A stretch of DNA of 64,000 bases, taken from an uncultured virus (IMG/VR IMGVR_UViG_2791355488_000009) (taxonomy: Duplodnaviria; Heunggongvirae; Uroviricota; Caudoviricetes). Below, piece by piece: positions 2,728 to 22,451 of the stretch. Below the pieces are notes generated by a model, which saw only the letters and a program-made list of their open reading frames with translations, searched no databases and was not told where the DNA came from. The translations under genes and the position numbers were made by a program. Where the stretch lies: IMG/VR virus record IMGVR_UViG_2791355488_000009; one strand, given 5' to 3'. The stretch's first letter is position 1. Each line of letters opens with the position of its first letter.

Positions 2728-4599
2728 ATGAACCCATTATTAGAAAGCAAATTAAACGAACTTAACAGTGCAGCAGATTATGAATGTTGGTATTTGGTGA
2801 AACAGCCAACAGCATTTGATAATATCTGTTATCTTGTTAGTTTCTTAGAAGATTTTAAAGCACAAGATAATCCAGGAAATCTACAGGACTACATCGCAAA
2901 TAAAATAGAAACACTAAAGACAATAAAACCGAATGTGGATATATCTAATAATTATCGTGCTCTGAGAGTAGCGGCATTTTTTGGTCTTATTACTATGACA
3001 AACACGAAGTATGAGAATGCAGTTATTACAGATTCGTTTAAAGAGGTTACATTAAGATGCAATGGTGAATATGAGAAGACAGGATTATATTTAGACATTA
3101 TACAGCGTCAAATTGAAAAAATGTATATCAGCTCTTCTGTAGATGAAGAATATGAAGGAGTAAGGCAAGACTACAGATTGTACCCCGTTATGTTGCTATA
3201 TAAGGTGTTGGTTGAACTTGGACGTTCAACCGGTAATTACTCTATTTCAATGACAGAGTATAGATACTTGGTGGCTACAACAAAAACATTTGAAGGTTTT
3301 CTTGATACGCTTTTATTAATTAAATTATTACGTGATGATTCTGATGCAACAACTTCATTTGAACAATATCGTTCTAAGTTTGACAATCGTCTAATTCAAG
3401 CACTGAAACAACTTTCGACATTGGTTGTTGAAAGAGATTCCATTTCACTCAATGAAGATTATATTGAAGAGGTGGCACATAAAGTATATATTTTTGAGGA
3501 CAACCCAAATATATTCACGACAGAAAACTATCTGGGGTTTCTTGGCTCGACAAAATCCTTGTTTGAGTTAGAAAAATTTGAAGAAGAAGAGGAACTAACA
3601 ATTTATGAAAATTCCACTAGAGTTAAAGGTGGAATGAATACCTTATTATATGGAGTCCCTGGGTCTGGAAAGAGCTGGACTATTGAAAAAGAGTATTGTG
3701 ATGATGAAAGCAGAATGGAGCGTCTTGTATTCCACCCAGATTACACTTACTCGGATTTTATTGGTCAAATTCTTCCTAATGTGTCTGATGGTATTGTAAG
3801 TTATAAGTTTACGGAAGGACCATTTACAAGTCTATTGAAAAAAGCTTATACAAATCCTGAAAAGATGTTTTACCTTATAATTGAAGAAATTAATCGTGGA
3901 AACGCACCAGCTATATTTGGCGAAGTTTTTCAACTTCTAGATCGCAAAGACGATGGAACGAGTGAGTATGGAATAACTAACGTGGATATTGCGAATATAG
4001 TCTACAACAATCCAAATAAAAAAGTTCGTATTCCTTCTAATATGTCTATCATTGGAACAATGAATACATCAGACCAGAATGTGTTCACTCTTGACACTGC
4101 CTTTCAACGTCGTTGGAATATGCGTATGATAGAAAACACATTTGTAGGACATGATTATGCAAGAACAACCATCTTAGACACAGGTGTAACTTGGCAAAGA
4201 TTCTGTGAAGTTATCAATAATGAAATTGTTACAAAAAATATTCGTATGACATCGTCAGAAGATAAAAGACTTGGAACATATTTTGTTAGAGCTGCTGACT
4301 TAGAATATCATGAAGAAGCAGACAATAATGACCTTTCTGAAAAAGAGCAAATTCAAGCAAGGTTGCTTAATTATAGATTTGCTGAGAAAGTTCTTAAATA
4401 TTTATGGGATGATGCTTTTAAATTTTCTCGTGAGGATATTTTCAAAAATACAATTTATAAGAGTCTAGAAGAAGTAGTTAATCACTTTAATTCTAGGAGT
4501 TCTGCAAAAGCAACAGGCAATGATCGTCTAGATGTTTTTAAAGAAGAGATTATTGACGCTTTTCTAACCCAGGATTCAATTGATAGTACTGTTGAGTAA
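2728..4599 (+). CDS. McrB-like AAA+ GTPase restriction subunit (LlaJI R1-like)
   Basis: Walker A GVPGSGKS, FHPDYTYSDF, Walker B IIEEINRG, McrB signature MNTSD, DTAFQRRW. Confidence 0.9.
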   Translation: MNPLLESKLNELNSAADYECWYLVKQPTAFDNICYLVSFLEDFKAQDNPGNLQDYIANKIETLKTIKPNVDISNNYRALRVAAFFGLITMTNTKYENAVITDSFKEVTLRCNGEYEKTGLYLDIIQRQIEKMYISSSVDEEYEGVRQDYRLYPVMLLYKVLVELGRSTGNYSISMTEYRYLVATTKTFEGFLDTLLLIKLLRDDSDATTSFEQYRSKFDNRLIQALKQLSTLVVERDSISLNEDYIEEVAHKVYIFEDNPNIFTTENYLGFLGSTKSLFELEKFEEEEELTIYENSTRVKGGMNTLLYGVPGSGKSWTIEKEYCDDESRMERLVFHPDYTYSDFIGQILPNVSDGIVSYKFTEGPFTSLLKKAYTNPEKMFYLIIEEINRGNAPAIFGEVFQLLDRKDDGTSEYGITNVDIANIVYNNPNKKVRIPSNMSIIGTMNTSDQNVFTLDTAFQRRWNMRMIENTFVGHDYARTTILDTGVTWQRFCEVINNEIVTKNIRMTSSEDKRLGTYFVRAADLEYHEEADNNDLSEKEQIQARLLNYRFAEKVLKYLWDDAFKFSREDIFKNTIYKSLEEVVNHFNSRSSAKATGNDRLDVFKEEIIDAFLTQDSIDSTVE

Positions 4600-14910: not shown

Positions 14911-15450
14911 ATGGCGAAAGACGGTACAGCAAGAGGCGGTCAGCGTGTTGGTGCAGGAAGAAAATCAAAGGCTCTAACCGACAAAATTGCTGATGGCAGA
15001 TTAAATGGTGCCATGATCCTGCCAGAGCCAACGGAAATAGAAGGTGCAGATGTTCCTCCTGTAAAAAATTATTTAAAGGCTACTCAGAAAAATGGCAAAG
15101 ACCTCTGTGCAGAAGATATTTATATCGAAACTTACAAGTGGCTGAAAGATCGTGGCTGCGAAATGTTAGTAAACAACCAGCTAATCGAGCAGTATGCCAT
15201 GAGTGTTTCTCGTTGGATTCAGTGTGAAGAGTGCATTTCAGAATATGGCTTTCTTGCCAAGCATCCAACCACTTCCGCTGCCATCGCATCACCTTATGTT
15301 GCGATGAGTCGTGAATACATGAAACAGGTCAACCAGTGTTGGTATCAGATTTACCAGATTGTGAAGGAAAACTGCTCTGTGGAGTTCGGTGGAAGAAGTC
15401 CACAAGACGATTTGATGGAGCGGTTATTATCTGCTCGGAAAGGAAAATAA
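14911..15450 (+). CDS. Terminase small subunit (P27 family)
   Basis: RGGQRVGAGRK N-terminus, ASPYV, DDLMERLL; position. Confidence 0.8.
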   Translation: MAKDGTARGGQRVGAGRKSKALTDKIADGRLNGAMILPEPTEIEGADVPPVKNYLKATQKNGKDLCAEDIYIETYKWLKDRGCEMLVNNQLIEQYAMSVSRWIQCEECISEYGFLAKHPTTSAAIASPYVAMSREYMKQVNQCWYQIYQIVKENCSVEFGGRSPQDDLMERLLSARKGK

Positions 15451-15451
15451 A

Positions 15452-16615
15452 ATGAAAAAATATAGAACGTGTGAAAGTGTATGCAAAGGTCATCCCGATA
15501 AATTATGTGACCTTATTTCAGATAGCATCTTAGATGCGTGTTTAAGAAAAGATAAATCCTCTCGTGTTGCTTGCGAGGTGATGGCTACCAAAGGACACAT
15601 CATTGTTGCCGGTGAGATTACCTGCTCAAAGAGAATTGATATCAGAGGTGTTGTTCGCCGTGTTCTGACGGATGTGGGCTACAATCCTAGAAAGTTTTTA
15701 GTCTTTGTCTATGTCCATCAGCAAAGTAAAGATATCGCAGGTGGTGTAGATAAGGCTTTGGAATCTCGTGAGGGTGATACGTCATGGTATTCCATGTTAG
15801 GAGCGGGTGACCAAGGCACCGTTTATGGCTATGCCACCAATGAAACCAGTGAGAAACTACCTCTCCCCTTAGTCTTATCCCATGCCATTTGCGAAAAGCT
15901 AGATAAGGTGATGAAGAATGGCGTGATTAAAGATATTGGCCCAGATGGTAAGGCTCAAGTGACGGTGGAATATGAAGGTGACAAACCAAAACGAATTAAG
16001 ACCATCGTTGTCTCCGTTCAACACAGTGCAGATAAAGATTTAGATGTTTTAAGAAATGAAGTCATTGCTCAGGTGCTGTGGCCAGTCTTTGAAAAATATC
16101 CATTTGACGATGAGACTGAGATCCTCATCAATCCAAGTGGACGATTTGTCGAAGGCGGACCAGCTGCAGATACCGGACTGACGGGAAGAAAAATCATGGT
16201 TGATACCTATGGTGGACTCGCCGCTCATGGTGGCGGTGCATTTTCAGGAAAAGACCCGACAAAAGTTGACCGCAGTGGTGCCTACATGGCGAGGGCAATT
16301 GCAAAGAATATTGTTCGATGTGGTTTTGCTAAGCGATGTCAGGTTGCGATTTCCTATGCCATTGGAAAAGCAGATCCGGTTGCTCTTGAGATTGATACCT
16401 TTGGAACAGGCACGGTGGAAGAAAGTATCCTTTGTCGTGCAGTGCTAGATGTATTCAATCTAAGACCTGCAGCCATTATCGAAAAGCTAAAACTGACGGA
16501 TGTTATTTATGCAGATACAGCTACTTACGGTCATTTCAGATATGGCTTAAGCACGTGGGAGTTTCTAGATTGCTATACAGAACTAAGGGAGGCGGTAAAC
16601 AAATATGTTGATTGA
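15452..16615 (+). CDS. metK: S-adenosylmethionine synthetase
   Basis: ESVCKGHPDK, GAGDQG, DGKAQVT, GGGAFSGKDPTKVDRS. Confidence 0.95.
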   Translation: MKKYRTCESVCKGHPDKLCDLISDSILDACLRKDKSSRVACEVMATKGHIIVAGEITCSKRIDIRGVVRRVLTDVGYNPRKFLVFVYVHQQSKDIAGGVDKALESREGDTSWYSMLGAGDQGTVYGYATNETSEKLPLPLVLSHAICEKLDKVMKNGVIKDIGPDGKAQVTVEYEGDKPKRIKTIVVSVQHSADKDLDVLRNEVIAQVLWPVFEKYPFDDETEILINPSGRFVEGGPAADTGLTGRKIMVDTYGGLAAHGGGAFSGKDPTKVDRSGAYMARAIAKNIVRCGFAKRCQVAISYAIGKADPVALEIDTFGTGTVEESILCRAVLDVFNLRPAAIIEKLKLTDVIYADTATYGHFRYGLSTWEFLDCYTELREAVNKYVD

Positions 16616-17840
16616 AAAGAAGAACACAAAAGACCTCATCCCTGCAACATACAATCCTCGTAAAGATTTAAAACCCGGTGATGCAGAATACGATAAATTA
16701 AAACGCTCCATTGAACAATTTGGTTATGTAGAGCCGGTTATCTGGAATAAGATGACCGGACATGTTGTTGGTGGGCATCAAAGACTAAAGGTTCTCATGG
16801 ATATGGGCATCACAGAAGTTGAGTGTGTCATCATTGAAATGGATGAAGAGAAAGAGAAAGCACTCAACATCGCACTCAATAAAATCAGCGGTGATTGGGA
16901 CAAGGATAAACTGGCCCTTTTAATTTCAGATTTACAAGGTGTAGATTTTGATGTTTCCCTAACTGGATTTGACCCTAAAGAACTGGATGACTTATTCAAG
17001 GACACATTGAAAGACGGTATCCACGATGATGACTTTGATGTGGAGACAGAACTAAAAAAGCCTGCCATCAGCAAGCTTGGTGACATATGGACGCTTGGCA
17101 GACACAGGCTTATCTGTGGTGATTCTACCAAGAAAGAAACCTATGATGTGCTGATGAATAAAAAGAAGGCAAACTTGTGCGTAACAGATCCTCCCTACAA
17201 TGTGAATTATGAAGGTGCTGCAGGGAAAATCAAAAATGACCATATGGCAAATGATGCCTTCTACCAGTTCCTCTTAGATGCCTTTATCAATATCGAAGAA
17301 GTTCTGGCAGACGATGCCTCCATCTATGTATTCCATGCCGACACCGAAGGGTTTAATTTTAGAAAAGCCTTCTCAGATGCCGGTTTTTATTTGTCTGGCT
17401 GTTGTATCTGGAAAAAGGACTCTCTTGTACTGGGGCGTTCTCCTTATCAATGGCAGCACGAACCTGTGCTGTTTGGCTGGAAGAAGAAGGGCAAGCATCA
17501 GTGGTATACGGGCAGGAAAGAAACCACCATCTGGGAATTTGATAAGCCGAAGAGAAATGGAGACCATCCTACGATGAAACCCATTCCTCTGCTCGCCTAT
17601 CCGATTTTGAACTCCTCGATGACTAACACCATTGTGCTAGATCCTTTTGGCGGCAGTGGTAGTACCTTAATTGCTTGTGAACAATCAGAGCGCATTTGCT
17701 ACACGGCAGAATTAGATGAGAAGTTTTGCGATGTCATTATCAAACGCTACATTGAACAGGTCGGTTCCTCTACCGAAGTCAGCGTTCAAAGGGATGGACT
17801 AAGTTACAACTATGATGAACTGGAGGTTGCTGATGGTTAA
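16605..17840 (+). CDS. ParB-N domain + N4/N6 DNA methyltransferase
   Basis: YNPRK..GGHQR ParB-like domain; TDPPY; HPTMKP; LDPFGGSGST. Confidence 0.9.
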   Translation: MLIEKKNTKDLIPATYNPRKDLKPGDAEYDKLKRSIEQFGYVEPVIWNKMTGHVVGGHQRLKVLMDMGITEVECVIIEMDEEKEKALNIALNKISGDWDKDKLALLISDLQGVDFDVSLTGFDPKELDDLFKDTLKDGIHDDDFDVETELKKPAISKLGDIWTLGRHRLICGDSTKKETYDVLMNKKKANLCVTDPPYNVNYEGAAGKIKNDHMANDAFYQFLLDAFINIEEVLADDASIYVFHADTEGFNFRKAFSDAGFYLSGCCIWKKDSLVLGRSPYQWQHEPVLFGWKKKGKHQWYTGRKETTIWEFDKPKRNGDHPTMKPIPLLAYPILNSSMTNTIVLDPFGGSGSTLIACEQSERICYTAELDEKFCDVIIKRYIEQVGSSTEVSVQRDGLSYNYDELEVADG

Positions 17841-19569
17841 ACTAACCCTTGGCAGTCTTTTTGATGGTTCAGGTGGTTTTCCTTTAGGCGGTTTAATTTC
17901 TGGTATTACCCCAGTATGGGCATCGGAGATTGAACCGTTTCCTATTAGGGTCACAACGAAAAGGCTGCCTTTTATAAAACATTACGGCGATATTTCAACC
18001 ATGGATGGCAGTAAGATAGAACCGGTAGATATTATTACTTTTGGCTCACCTTGTCAGGATTTATCCATAGCAGGTAAGCGTGATGGCTTGGATGGTAAAC
18101 GTTCAAGTCTTTTTTATGAGGCCATCCGAATTGTAAAAGAAATGAGGTGTGCTACAGATGGCAAAAAACCAAGATATATTGTCTGGGAAAACGTCCCTGG
18201 AGCCTTCTCATCAAATAAAGGAGAAGATTTCAGATGTGTCCTTGAAGGCATCTGCCACATCAAGGATGAAACCTTATCAGTTCCTAAGATTGATAAGTGG
18301 AAACAAGCAGGAACTATTGTGGGAGATCATTTCTCCCTTGCCTGGCGAGTGCTTGACGCTCAATACTGGGGAGTTCCCCAACGAAGAAAACGCATCTTCC
18401 TTGTCGCAGATTTTGCAGGTGGGGGTGTCGGAGAAATACTATTTAAGTCAGAAGGCTTGTCTGGGTATTCTAAAAAGAGCATCCGCTCGTGGCAAGGAAC
18501 TGCCAGCAACTTTGCAGACAGCATTGGAGCGACAGGCACAATCTGCTTAAATGACCAAGGCGGAGAACGCATGGATGTGACAACAGATATCACTTGCACT
18601 TTGAGGGCGAAATCAAATCATCCGCCTTGTATCATTGACTCTGCAGTTTTTGATAATCATGGAAAGGATACACGTTTTACTGGGCCAATCGATGTTGCAC
18701 CAACGATTTCTGCGACCTATGGAACAGGAGGCAACAATCAACCATTTGTTGTGGAGAATTCTAAGACTTATGATGTGCGATTTACCTCGGAAGGAACTGT
18801 AAATGCCCGTTCTAATGTTTACGAGAGTGATACGGCAAGAACGATTGATACGTCGGGTAATGCACCGGACAGCAATCAAGGTGGTATTGCAGTGGTGGAA
18901 TCTTATGGCTTACAAGGTTCTATAATAGGACGGGCAGATAAGAATGGACCTCAAGGTGATGGTGTGAATGAGGAGCTTAGTTTCACTTTAAATACCGTAG
19001 ATAAACACGCTGTGGTATATGCCATTGATAGAGAGTCATTTAACTGCGGTCAAAACTATGCTAGAAACCTAGGAATTACTGAAGACGGAATTAATTCCAC
19101 ACTAAAGGCACAAGGCCCTAGTGCTGTTGCAACTCCTACCTATTCATCCAGTAAGGCATCATTTTTTACAGATGCCAAAGAGGAACTTGCCAATACGCTG
19201 GTTGCTACCGACTACAAAGATCCGCCACTTATCAATGATAATGACGGGATAGATTATACGGTGAGAAGACTAACTCCAACTGAGTGTGCAAGACTGCAAG
19301 GTTTTCCAGATTGGTGGTGCAGTGATTTAGGCATAGAGAACCCAACGATGGATGACCTTCGGATTTGGTATGACATCTTTGAAACATTCCGTAAAGCGAC
19401 AGGAGCTTATTCCAAATCTAAGACACTAAAGCAAATCACGAAGTGGCTTAAAAACCCTCATTCAGATTCTGCAGAATATAAGATGTGGGGTAATGGAGTA
19501 GCCTTGCCCAATGTATGTTTTGTCCTATCGGGCATTGTTTGGTTTACACAATTAGAAGTGAAATCTTAA
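17833..19569 (+). CDS. Phage C5-cytosine DNA methyltransferase with long repeated variable region
   Basis: SLFDGSGG, GSPCQD, WENVPG, QRRKR, RRLTPTECARLQGFPD, YKMWGNGV. Confidence 0.9.
   Translation: MVKLTLGSLFDGSGGFPLGGLISGITPVWASEIEPFPIRVTTKRLPFIKHYGDISTMDGSKIEPVDIITFGSPCQDLSIAGKRDGLDGKRSSLFYEAIRIVKEMRCATDGKKPRYIVWENVPGAFSSNKGEDFRCVLEGICHIKDETLSVPKIDKWKQAGTIVGDHFSLAWRVLDAQYWGVPQRRKRIFLVADFAGGGVGEILFKSEGLSGYSKKSIRSWQGTASNFADSIGATGTICLNDQGGERMDVTTDITCTLRAKSNHPPCIIDSAVFDNHGKDTRFTGPIDVAPTISATYGTGGNNQPFVVENSKTYDVRFTSEGTVNARSNVYESDTARTIDTSGNAPDSNQGGIAVVESYGLQGSIIGRADKNGPQGDGVNEELSFTLNTVDKHAVVYAIDRESFNCGQNYARNLGITEDGINSTLKAQGPSAVATPTYSSSKASFFTDAKEELANTLVATDYKDPPLINDNDGIDYTVRRLTPTECARLQGFPDWWCSDLGIENPTMDDLRIWYDIFETFRKATGAYSKSKTLKQITKWLKNPHSDSAEYKMWGNGVALPNVCFVLSGIVWFTQLEVKS
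18158..18550 (+). CDS. Nested +1-frame ORF inside the C5 MTase (M.EcoHK31I beta-subunit-like)
   Basis: SD-like gaggtg 7 nt before ATG 18158; SSLSQIL..KYYLS.KAC.GIL.RA..RGKELP..L..AL sequence. Confidence 0.65.
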   Translation: MAKNQDILSGKTSLEPSHQIKEKISDVSLKASATSRMKPYQFLRLISGNKQELLWEIISPLPGECLTLNTGEFPNEENASSLSQILQVGVSEKYYLSQKACLGILKRASARGKELPATLQTALERQAQSA

Positions 19570-19600: not shown

Positions 19601-19636
19601 AGCTTGCTATAGTAGTGGTTTAGAGTGATATATGTA
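19601..19636 (+). promoter_or_regulatory. Conserved promoter-like element AGCTTGCTAT-N10-TAGAGTGATRTATGTA, copy 1
   Basis: Near-identical copy at 43744-43779; both precede an SD and gene. Confidence 0.6.
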
Positions 19637-19663
19637 CATACCAAAACAAAGGAGGTTTTGTAC

Positions 19664-20356
19664 ATGGTCATTAAATATAACGTAACAGGAGCAGACCGAA
19701 AAAGGCTAGTTACAACACTGAGCAAGATTACAGGTGTGAAAGCAAAGTATCTAGGAATGCCTAGCATGGCTTATGAGGTGGGGGATTTTATCATCGACAA
19801 GAATGGAACACTTGAACTGACTGGCAAGGCAGAAAGCGAAAAAATCGAAAGTGTGGCCGAGTGTTTAGCAAGCGAGGGCTTTACCCCAGATGAAGAAACT
19901 AAGGCCACAGCGAGCGCACAAACGGCGGACAGAGGAACATTTGGTCTTTGTATCTCCATGCCAAGAAGTAGCTTTACTGAAACGGCACTAGATAACGTAA
20001 AGGCAATCATTCAGGTAAAAGGCGAACTGATTCGTCACGCTTTGCAGCTAGATGATTTACCGATTGAGATTACAGAAGACCAAGTCTCATTTCCTTGGTT
20101 TGAAGAGATGCCTTCACCAGAAGAGGTACAAGCGTATACCCACTTTATTTCAGCACTTTGTGAGATGGCAAGGAATCAAAAACGCATCACGGTAAAAGAA
20201 AAGGAAACTCCGAATGAGAAATATGCATTCCGATGCTTTTTACTGCGCCTTGGCTTTATCGGAAAAGAACATAAGGAAGAACGGAAAATACTGCTTAGAA
20301 ACCTAACAGGTTCATCGGCATTTAAAGGAGGAGGTAAAAATGAGGATAATCAGTAA
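19664..20356 (+). CDS. Conserved phage protein (often labelled virulence-related protein)
   Basis: KYLGMPSMAYEVG, VSFPWF, NEKYAFRCFLLRLGFIG, LLRNLTGSSAFK. Confidence 0.7.
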   Translation: MVIKYNVTGADRKRLVTTLSKITGVKAKYLGMPSMAYEVGDFIIDKNGTLELTGKAESEKIESVAECLASEGFTPDEETKATASAQTADRGTFGLCISMPRSSFTETALDNVKAIIQVKGELIRHALQLDDLPIEITEDQVSFPWFEEMPSPEEVQAYTHFISALCEMARNQKRITVKEKETPNEKYAFRCFLLRLGFIGKEHKEERKILLRNLTGSSAFKGGGKNEDNQ

Positions 20357-20840: not shown

Positions 20841-22451
20841 GTGACCGCAATTAGAAAGCTCAAGAAATATAAACCGACACCTTTTATGGCAAAGGACTCT
20901 ATCTACGATAAAGATGCTGCAGATTATGCGGTCAACTTTATTGAGTGTTTAAGTCATACCAAGGGGAAATGGTCTGGAAAACCATTTGAACTGATTGATT
21001 GGCAAGAACAAATTATCAGAGATCTCTTTGGAACACTGAAACCAGATGGCTATCGGCAGTTTAATACAGCCTATATTGAGATTCCTAAGAAAATGGGGAA
21101 ATCTGAATTAGCGGCAGCTGTCGCATTACTGCTTACTTGTGGTGATGGCGAAGAAAGAGCCGAGGTTTATGGATGCGCTGCAGACAGGCAACAGGCGTCC
21201 ATCGTATTTGAAGTGGCTGCTGATATGGTACGTATGAGCCCGGCTCTAAGTAAACGAGTTAAAATCTTATCGGCAACAAAGCGGATCATTTTCCAACCGA
21301 CTAATAGTTTTTATCAAGTGCTTTCAGCAGAGGCTTATTCAAAGCATGGTTTTAATATTCATGGTGTTGTTTTTGATGAGCTGCATACGCAGCCCAATAG
21401 AAAACTCTTTGATGTCATGACCAAAGGTTCTGGTGATGCCAGAACACAGCCCCTATATTTTCTGATCACCACGGCAGGATCTGATACAAAATCAATCTGC
21501 TATGAAACCCATCAGAAAGCCAAAGATCTCATGGAGAAAAGAAAGATTGACCCTACTTTTTATCCGGTTATTTATGGAGCAGATGAGTCAGATGATTGGA
21601 CCTGTCCAAAGGTGTGGAAAAAAGCGAATCCAAGCCTTGGCATAACGGTAGGGATTGATAAGGTAAAAGCCGCCTGTGAATCAGCCAAGCAAAACCCTGC
21701 AGAAGAGAATGCCTTTAGACAGCTAAGGCTTAATCAGTGGGTCAAACAAGCGGTTCGCTGGATGCCAATGGACAGGTGGGATAAATGTGCCTTTGCCGTA
21801 AATGAAGAGGATTTACTTGGAAGGGTATGCTATGGCGGACTAGACCTTTCTAGCTCCATTGATATTACTGCCTTTGTATTGGTGTTTCCTCCCCTAGATG
21901 AGGATGATAAATACATCATTCTTCCCTACTTTTGGCTGCCAGAAGAAACTCTAAGTGCCAGGGTCAACCGTGACCATGTTCCCTATGATGTCTGGGAAAA
22001 GCAAGGACAGCTTAAAACAACGGAAGGCAATGTGGTCCATTACGGTTTTATTGAGAAGTTCATCGAAGAACTTGGCGAAAAGTACAATATTCGTGAGATT
22101 GCCTTTGACCGTTGGGGAGCCGTACAAATGGTTCAAAACCTAGAAGGCATGGGTTTTACTGTTGTCCCCTTTGGTCAAGGATTTAAGGATATGAGTCCAC
22201 CGACTAAGGAACTGATGAAACTAACGCTAGAAGAAAAGGTTGCTCATGGTGGGCATCCTGTACTTCGTTGGATGATGGATAACATTTTTGTTCGAACAGA
22301 CCCGGCAGGCAACATCAAGCCAGACAAGGAAAAATCATCAGAAAAGATTGATGGTGCAGTGGCAACGATTATGGCTCTTGATCGAGCGATTCGTTGTGGC
22401 AATGATACGAGTGCTTCGGTTTATGACAACCGAGGCATTCTCTTTATATGA
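20841..22451 (+). CDS. terL: Terminase large subunit (true start possibly ATT at 20850)
   Basis: EIPKKMGKSE Walker A, VFDELH Walker B, GGLDLS, EKIDGAVA. Confidence 0.95.
   Translation: MTAIRKLKKYKPTPFMAKDSIYDKDAADYAVNFIECLSHTKGKWSGKPFELIDWQEQIIRDLFGTLKPDGYRQFNTAYIEIPKKMGKSELAAAVALLLTCGDGEERAEVYGCAADRQQASIVFEVAADMVRMSPALSKRVKILSATKRIIFQPTNSFYQVLSAEAYSKHGFNIHGVVFDELHTQPNRKLFDVMTKGSGDARTQPLYFLITTAGSDTKSICYETHQKAKDLMEKRKIDPTFYPVIYGADESDDWTCPKVWKKANPSLGITVGIDKVKAACESAKQNPAEENAFRQLRLNQWVKQAVRWMPMDRWDKCAFAVNEEDLLGRVCYGGLDLSSSIDITAFVLVFPPLDEDDKYIILPYFWLPEETLSARVNRDHVPYDVWEKQGQLKTTEGNVVHYGFIEKFIEELGEKYNIREIAFDRWGAVQMVQNLEGMGFTVVPFGQGFKDMSPPTKELMKLTLEEKVAHGGHPVLRWMMDNIFVRTDPAGNIKPDKEKSSEKIDGAVATIMALDRAIRCGNDTSASVYDNRGILFI

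Follow-up and report, generated by a model that had tools for sequence, protein, structure and literature searches.

Sequence evidence for a conserved gene nested in the +1 frame of phage C5 cytosine methyltransferase genes

Does a phage gene for a C5 cytosine methyltransferase also encode a second protein in another reading frame? The question is raised by a stretch of 64,000 nucleotides (nt) from the uncultured virus IMGVR_UViG_2791355488_000009 (hereafter the window, meaning this whole stretch), in which an open reading frame (ORF) of 130 codons lies wholly inside the methyltransferase gene, on the same strand and in its +1 frame. An earlier note on this DNA had proposed that the nested ORF is a gene, and that it resembles the beta chain of the two-polypeptide enzyme M.EcoHK31I. 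The nature of the surrounding gene is clear, given that the main ORF matches Pfam PF00145 (E 1e-41, 143.9 bits against a cut-off of 22) and TIGR00675 (E 8e-37). The gene is not split, and a single ORF contains motifs I, IV, VI, VIII, IX and X; the starts of its homologs suggest that the true start is the ATG at 17833. The nested ORF overprints the main-frame codons for motifs VI to VIII and the linker, and its stop codon coincides with the beginning of the target-recognition part. It is present in a single copy in the window genome, and the C-terminal sequence quoted for it in the earlier note is correct according to its translation.

Coding in the +1 frame was evaluated in 80 viral-contig loci, which were fetched by the main protein only, so that the state of the nested frame had no influence on the sampling. 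A full-length match was found in 76 of the 80, and the 69 distinct ones together with that of the window make 70 distinct genes; the non-redundant set contains 32 genes with less than 90% identity. As a control, the synonymous codons of each gene were redrawn from its own usage with the protein unchanged. The +1 frame is open from stop to stop for 132-145 codons, across main codons ~112-246, in all 70 distinct homologs (70/70), a fused, single-chain clade that spans down to 52% identity in the main protein. Stops in close homologs were looked for, and the frame is uninterrupted in every gene. From the shuffled sequences, 1.0-4.6 +1 stops would be expected in the overlap, with a chance of 0.003-0.33 per gene of having none, which corresponds to 3.4 stop-free genes among the 32 where 31 were observed. 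In the single exception (L100), the stop is the upstream boundary stop, two codons 5' of its ATG. Outside the overlap the same genes carry 3.2-8.8 +1 stops per equal length, and the +2 frame over the region has 3-12 stops, indicating that the avoidance of stops is specific to the +1 frame.

The same region shows a strong suppression of synonymous change. In the 32 genes, codon identity at shared amino acids is 0.41 upstream, 0.68 in the overlap and 0.41 downstream (per-codon Mann-Whitney p = 1e-28), with a peak of 0.83 for main residues 191-246. Conservation alternates between the two frames. At motifs VI and VIII the main frame has the higher identity, and the block-wise identities show that over the N-terminal half of the nested protein, where motif VI lies, it is the more conserved of the two. 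For nested residues 101-130 the identities are 0.80/0.69/0.57 in the nested frame versus 0.50/0.37/0.36 in the main frame. Both the stop avoidance and the reduced synonymous variation that the earlier note had named as checks are, therefore, observed in homologs.

The signals for starting translation are also conserved. The nested ATG occupies the same position in 31/31 homologs and is preceded by the Shine-Dalgarno (SD)-like sequence GAGGTG that the earlier note had pointed out, although the spacing is 8 nt and not the 7 nt given there. This sequence is composed of the main-frame codons ATG AGG TGT, and the same ATG-AGG forms the +1-frame TGA (18143-18145) that is the upstream boundary of the nested frame. 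The main-frame codons GAA ATG AGG, from which the GAGG arises, are identical in 32/32 non-redundant genes, while AGG makes up only 17% of the arginine codons elsewhere in those genes. An alternative GTG start at 18149 would give a nested product of 133 amino acids (aa). The nested ORF is most likely translated independently, from the conserved GAGG and the ATG at 18158. With the frame open in all distinct homologs and the start signals fixed, the nested alternative-frame gene that the earlier note had proposed is confirmed, and the ORF is very likely a real coding gene under selection.

The nested frame was also found in distant phages. A tblastn search with the nested protein matched 169 of 50,697 phage records, a lower bound given that a single sequence was used; for comparison, the N-terminal catalytic region of the enzyme has matches in 1734. 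Three distant matches were inspected, those in phage P1 (dmt), Mycobacterium phage Omega (gp127) and Vibrio phage CP-T1 (gp12). Each of them falls within the annotated C5 coding sequence (CDS), in its +1 frame; this frame is open for 165, 159 and 153 codons, respectively, and carries the same C-terminal motif. The +1 translations score 79.5 (P1), 76.0 (Omega) and 84.2 bits (CP-T1) against the family profile, compared with a mean of 3-6 bits and a maximum of 23-29 bits in 300 shuffles that preserve the main protein of each. In P1 and CP-T1 a GGAG is found 8-12 nt 5' of the candidate ATGs. The expectation that standard annotation would miss such a gene holds in the matched regions that were inspected in P1, Omega, CP-T1 and the Terrisporobacter phage TPDSL_ph1, where the records list only the methyltransferase CDS and not the nested ORF. 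A profile search of 1.84 billion representative sequences retrieved 4671 clusters at E <= 1e-3, 512 of them at E <= 1e-30.

Two of these phages present further peculiarities in the methyltransferase itself. In the dmt CDS of P1 (L161 1921-3939), which carries no annotation other than that of an adenine methylase, the C5 domain comes first and a Dam-like domain (DPPY) is at the end; the nested +1 ORF extends over 2219-2718 of the locus and probably starts at ATG 2237, preceded by GGAG. In Omega (L162 1565-2869), the methyltransferase seems to be split into gp127, with motifs I-VIII, and gp128, and the nested +1 ORF of gp127 ends at ~2216; such a split would mean three polypeptides.

Database searches with the nested protein revealed its relatives. 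Besides 564 called proteins of ~130 aa, there are 1330 matches to longer proteins, including abundant proteins of 511-614 aa. The whole nested protein aligns in frame to residues 16-145 of one of these, P0181 (540 aa), with 48% identity (E 6e-29). The remainder of P0181 aligns with the window methyltransferase from its residue 219 onwards, a stretch that comprises the recognition part together with motifs IX and X, and proteins of this type are devoid of motifs I-VIII. Judged by this alignment, the nested protein is homologous to the N-terminal domain of the beta chain of a split enzyme. From the DNA of such split relatives, 80 loci were kept, mostly from Oscillospiraceae and other gut Clostridia, and 75 could be classified. 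All 75 carry the domain as a fusion with the beta chain of the methyltransferase, and the division of the motifs between two ORFs is seen in L002 and L021. Long +1 overlaps of alpha and beta occur in 53/75 loci; in L002, the alpha ORF (motifs I-VIII) extends to 4374 and the beta ORF, in the +1 frame, begins at 4001, which leaves 374 nt that are read twice. In the other 22/75 loci, alpha and beta lie next to each other or share no more than 71 nt, in any frame, and the domain is encoded on its own DNA.

These last loci provide a natural control. In 12/12 own-DNA loci, the +1 frame of the 3' part of alpha scores against the family profile at the level of its codon-shuffled versions (z -1.3 to +1.4), and it carries stops in 9/12; in the long-overlap loci, the score lies 10-11 standard deviations above the shuffles in 6/6. 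The disappearance of the +1 signal where the domain is encoded elsewhere means that the need to encode motifs VI-VIII does not by itself produce this signal. In the own-DNA loci, the -1 frame of the separately encoded domain matches the profile of alpha motifs VI-VIII in 18/18 loci (E down to 2e-8); given that this match follows from the homology of the DNA alone, it was not counted as independent evidence.

The split loci show two other features. In 10 of the 22 adjacent-type loci (the type of L021 3899-3904), the beta ATG directly follows the alpha stop in the same frame, and one read-through would yield a single chain made of alpha, the N-terminal domain and the recognition part. Beta chains of the L002 type have, at residues ~150-320, between the N-terminal domain and the conserved CLNDQGG, repeated modules of the form NQRDE..L..V.GAL.A...M.QQTF, the number of which varies between loci; these may be repeated recognition modules.

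The nested protein itself is conserved mainly in its C-terminal part, which is basic and helical and ends in the motif LSQIL..KYYLSxKACxGILRRAxxRGKxLPxxLxxAL. In an alignment of 58 sequences from all three gene layouts, 15 columns are invariant (W55, P74, L82, L86, L96, A100, C101, G103, L105, R107, K113, L115, P116, L119 and A122), all of them within the C-terminal 75 residues. Helices are predicted at residues 98-111 and 117-129, and AlphaFold2 (AF2) gives residues 91-130 predicted local distance difference test (pLDDT) values of 78-90; the ~90 residues before them are predicted to be disordered. No match to the nested protein was found in Pfam and NCBIfam, and a Pfam search with 58 family members gave only chance-level rows; the profile search of the sequences in the PDB gave 0 matches at E <= 10, and neither it nor Pfam returned a helix-turn-helix or other family match. 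Fold searches with the AF2 model remained at background level, with a best Z of 3.6 and 0 chains at Z >= 5 in VIA-align, and a best E of 3.5 in Foldseek, which does not amount to evidence of a new fold. The sole match in PHROGs is phrog_16143, named 'DNA methyltransferase' (E 3.7e-7), which presumably groups ORFs that are mis-called or chimeric, and in the ESM Atlas the protein falls among unnamed 'hypothetical protein' clusters of 132-163 aa. A suspicion that FP..LSQIL..KYYLS is an ordinary segment of orthodox C5 methyltransferases, located behind motif VIII, found no support in the Pfam or PDB-sequence searches.

Given that the domain is free in some genomes and fused to beta in others, such as mobile elements from gut Clostridia, the nested protein most likely acts on or with the methyltransferase. 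It would dock as an accessory chain on the catalytic part of the enzyme; in the split enzymes, the N-terminal domain would tether beta to alpha, while in single-chain enzymes such as that of the window the nested protein would be supplied in trans. An overprinted gene with an accessory chain of the methyltransferase as its product is the best explanation overall, and a probable one. The accessory role taken by itself, with the binding that the logic of fusion suggests, is put forward tentatively. Several points weigh against this explanation. The main chain contains all the catalytic motifs and, therefore, may not need a partner. The AF2 model of the lone nested protein is of low confidence (mean pLDDT 59.6, from a 58-row alignment), and the lone beta chain (L043, 471 aa, 41-row alignment) folds poorly, with a mean pLDDT of 42.4, which makes this model uninformative on the packing of the N-terminal domain. 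The homologs in each set are also related by descent, and the joint probabilities obtained from the shuffles are, for this reason, nominal rather than exact.

The presence of every catalytic motif in the main chain also speaks for a different role for a real nested gene, in which its product would be a regulator that binds DNA or RNA and autoregulates the methylation module, or a counter-defence factor. Selection would then favour a tight linkage to the methyltransferase gene, as in the case of protection from host nucleases that cut methylated DNA. Some C5 methyltransferases, those of the SsoII type, have N-terminal DNA-binding regions that regulate their own operon. The basic and helical C-terminal part, with two or three short helices, and the disordered N-terminal half rich in Ser, Thr and Lys fit such a role. 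Nonetheless, the fusion of the domain to the beta chain in 75/75 loci points to an action on or with the enzyme, and neither a helix-turn-helix nor another family match was found, with folds at background (Z 3.6, Foldseek E >= 3.5). A regulator or counter-defence factor is, on balance, unlikely, if well short of negligible.

Since one frame change near 18540 would be enough to convert a split gene into the layout of the window, and the nested stop lies exactly where the recognition part starts, the nested frame of the fused genes could also be seen as a functionless leftover of a split ancestor. This is very improbable. The fused clade keeps the frame open in 70/70 genes down to 52% identity of the main protein, with the ATG and SD fixed and synonymous change suppressed, and the nested frame is retained in the fused genes of P1 and CP-T1; a frame that has truly been released, that of the own-DNA clade, decays to the level of the shuffles.

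Ribosomal +1 frameshifting into the nested frame, which would give a chimera of motifs I-VI and the nested C-terminus, is slightly less probable still. Database proteins of ~239 aa with that make-up do exist, of which P0123, joined after YIVWE, is an example. However, these chimeras correspond to the loss of one base from a run of only four A and are absent from all 76 full-length viral loci, while the conserved ATG with its SD, and the separate starts with strong SD sequences in the split relatives, point to independent initiation. In the chimeras, represented by P0123, P0124, P0125 and others, motifs I-IV are joined to the nested frame after YIVWE and the missing base is from the GAAAAC run at window positions 18190-18195; genes that are broken, or errors in the reads, are the probable cause. 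Finally, that a nucleic-acid element (an RNA structure or a DNA site) and not a second protein is what is conserved can practically be set aside, given that, although synonymous suppression alone cannot discriminate between the two, the stop avoidance is specific to +1 (3-12 stops in +2), the amino-acid similarity extends across phyla with synonymous sites saturated, and the same amino-acid sequence is retained where it is encoded on separate DNA.

With an overprinted gene as the preferred explanation, the comparison of the layouts informs on its origin. In the fused and long-overlap layouts, the DNA that is read twice corresponds in frame 0 to the motif VI-VIII region of alpha, and in frame +1 to the separately encoded domain of the own-DNA layout. 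This two-way homology implies that the two segments of the own-DNA layout descend by duplication from one ancestor that was read twice. Given that all C5 methyltransferases have motifs VI-VIII, the nested domain would be the younger, overprinted reading. A quick, midpoint-rooted tree of the alpha part is in line with this order: the 19 own-DNA loci form one clade with a Shimodaira-Hasegawa-like approximate likelihood ratio test (SH-aLRT) support of 99, which is nested within the diversity of the long-overlap loci with a weak support of 81; P1 and CP-T1, which have the overlap, fall outside. The order of events is, for now, provisional.

Taken jointly, the following account is somewhat favoured. 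A new family would have been born by overprinting on motifs VI-VIII of C5 methyltransferases of mobile elements and kept hidden in phages of Bacillota, Proteobacteria (the dmt of the classic phage P1 among them) and Actinobacteria; its product would be a third component of the enzyme, free in the single-chain forms and fused to beta in the split ones; and one clade, mostly of Oscillospiraceae contigs, would have resolved the overlap through a duplication with a shift of frame, the former +1 frame then decaying.

The window carries a siphovirus-type phage or prophage (Table 1). The C5 gene belongs to a methylation module, located between the genes for the small and large terminase, that also contains an S-adenosylmethionine (SAM) synthetase, a ParB-N N6/N4 methyltransferase, the stop of which overlaps the likely C5 start at ATG 17833, and an amidoligase-like gene. 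In the cultured phage TPDSL_ph1, a methyltransferase, the C5 gene and an amidoligase occur in the same order as in the window. The database protein P0128 (349 aa) combines the N-terminal part of the ParB-N6/N4 methyltransferase with the C-terminal part of the nested protein, and looks like a deletion that joins the upstream gene to the nested frame.

Table 1. Features of the window at and around the C5 methyltransferase gene (positions of the whole stretch).
Feature	Position	Strand	Remarks
Small terminase	14911..15450		
MetK-like SAM synthetase	15452..16615		
ParB-N + N6/N4 methyltransferase	16605..17840		
C5 cytosine methyltransferase	17812..19569	+	585 aa
Motif I	17857-17880	+	main frame
Motif IV (PCQ)	18040-18060	+	main frame
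SD-like GAGGTG	18144..18149	+	8 nt 5' of nested ATG
Nested ORF	18158..18550	+	+1 frame of C5 gene; 130 codons + TAA
Nested N-terminal half	18158..18319	+	Ser/Thr/Lys-rich; predicted disordered; AF2 pLDDT 41-51
Motif VI (ENV)	18187-18201	+	main frame
Nested C-terminal part, residues 55-127	18320..18538	+	conserved from W55 to the C-terminal motif
Motif VIII (QRRKR)	18379-18405	+	main frame
Start of target-recognition part (CLNDQGG)	18544-18564	+	main frame
Motif IX (RRLTPTECARLQGFPD, aa 485-500)	19264-19311	+	main frame
Motif X	19489-19509	+	main frame
Amidoligase-like gene	19625..20356		
Large terminase	20841..22451		
Primase/helicase, portal, protease, capsid protein, tape measure protein			encoded in the window

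M.EcoHK31I of E. coli (YGGCCR) is an alpha/beta C5 methyltransferase in which beta is encoded inside the alpha gene in another frame, supplies the motif IX that is missing from alpha and is required for activity (PMC2836561). The locus of the window is similar in that a second chain lies wholly inside the methyltransferase gene, on the same strand and in another frame, in a family of two-chain enzymes. Unlike M.EcoHK31I, however, the window has a complete main chain, with motifs I-X, and a nested chain devoid of methyltransferase motifs, and its nested ORF is placed over motifs VI-VIII and not over the variable region. The resemblance to the beta chain of M.EcoHK31I proposed in the earlier note is not supported, given that it is the main frame that encodes motif IX and that the nested protein has neither a methyltransferase motif nor a Pfam match; the same note's remark that the main frame retains motifs IX and X is correct, both being located there (Table 1). 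What survives of the proposed kinship with two-polypeptide C5 methyltransferases is of another kind, namely that the homolog of the nested protein is the N-terminal domain of beta in the split relatives.

These relatives bring to mind another system. M.AquI is a naturally split C5 methyltransferase with motifs I-VIII in alpha and IX-X in beta, encoded by overlapping ORFs. The relatives from gut Clostridia are likewise split after motif VIII into overlapping or abutting ORFs. The gene of the window differs from M.AquI in being unsplit, and the relatives differ in that their beta has an extra N-terminal domain of ~130 aa, encoded over motifs VI-VIII of alpha; to our knowledge, such a domain has not been described for M.AquI.

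Overprinted genes on the same strand have been reviewed for viruses (PMC8227390). The nested gene shares with them a younger protein in a shifted frame, a disordered part of biased composition and the suppression of synonymous change in the host frame. It differs in having the catalytic core of a DNA methyltransferase as its host frame, and in an overlap that is retained in phages of Bacillota, Proteobacteria and Actinobacteria, with one clade in which it has been undone. Judged by all these comparisons, the nested ORF is a conserved, unannotated overlapping gene of a new family, a variation on the theme of M.EcoHK31I for which we infer the mechanism. No description of a nested gene in these methyltransferases was found in a literature search made mostly on titles and the beginnings of abstracts.

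Long overlaps on the same strand are held to be very rare in the DNA genomes of prokaryotes and phages. Here, an overlap of ~390 nt involves the best-conserved region of an enzyme family that has been studied well, and even in phage P1 it is unannotated. Thousands of such loci are currently mis-handled by gene callers. The three layouts, a single chain with a nested gene, a split enzyme with a long overlap and a split enzyme with the domain on separate DNA, make up an unusually clean natural series, which illustrates the origin of an overprinted gene, its fusion and its later release from the overlap. If the product of the nested gene is a partner of the methyltransferase, the "orphan" C5 methyltransferases that phages and conjugative elements carry as anti-restriction devices would have a component that has so far gone unseen, and this would bear on their expression, on the prediction of their specificity and on their use as tools.

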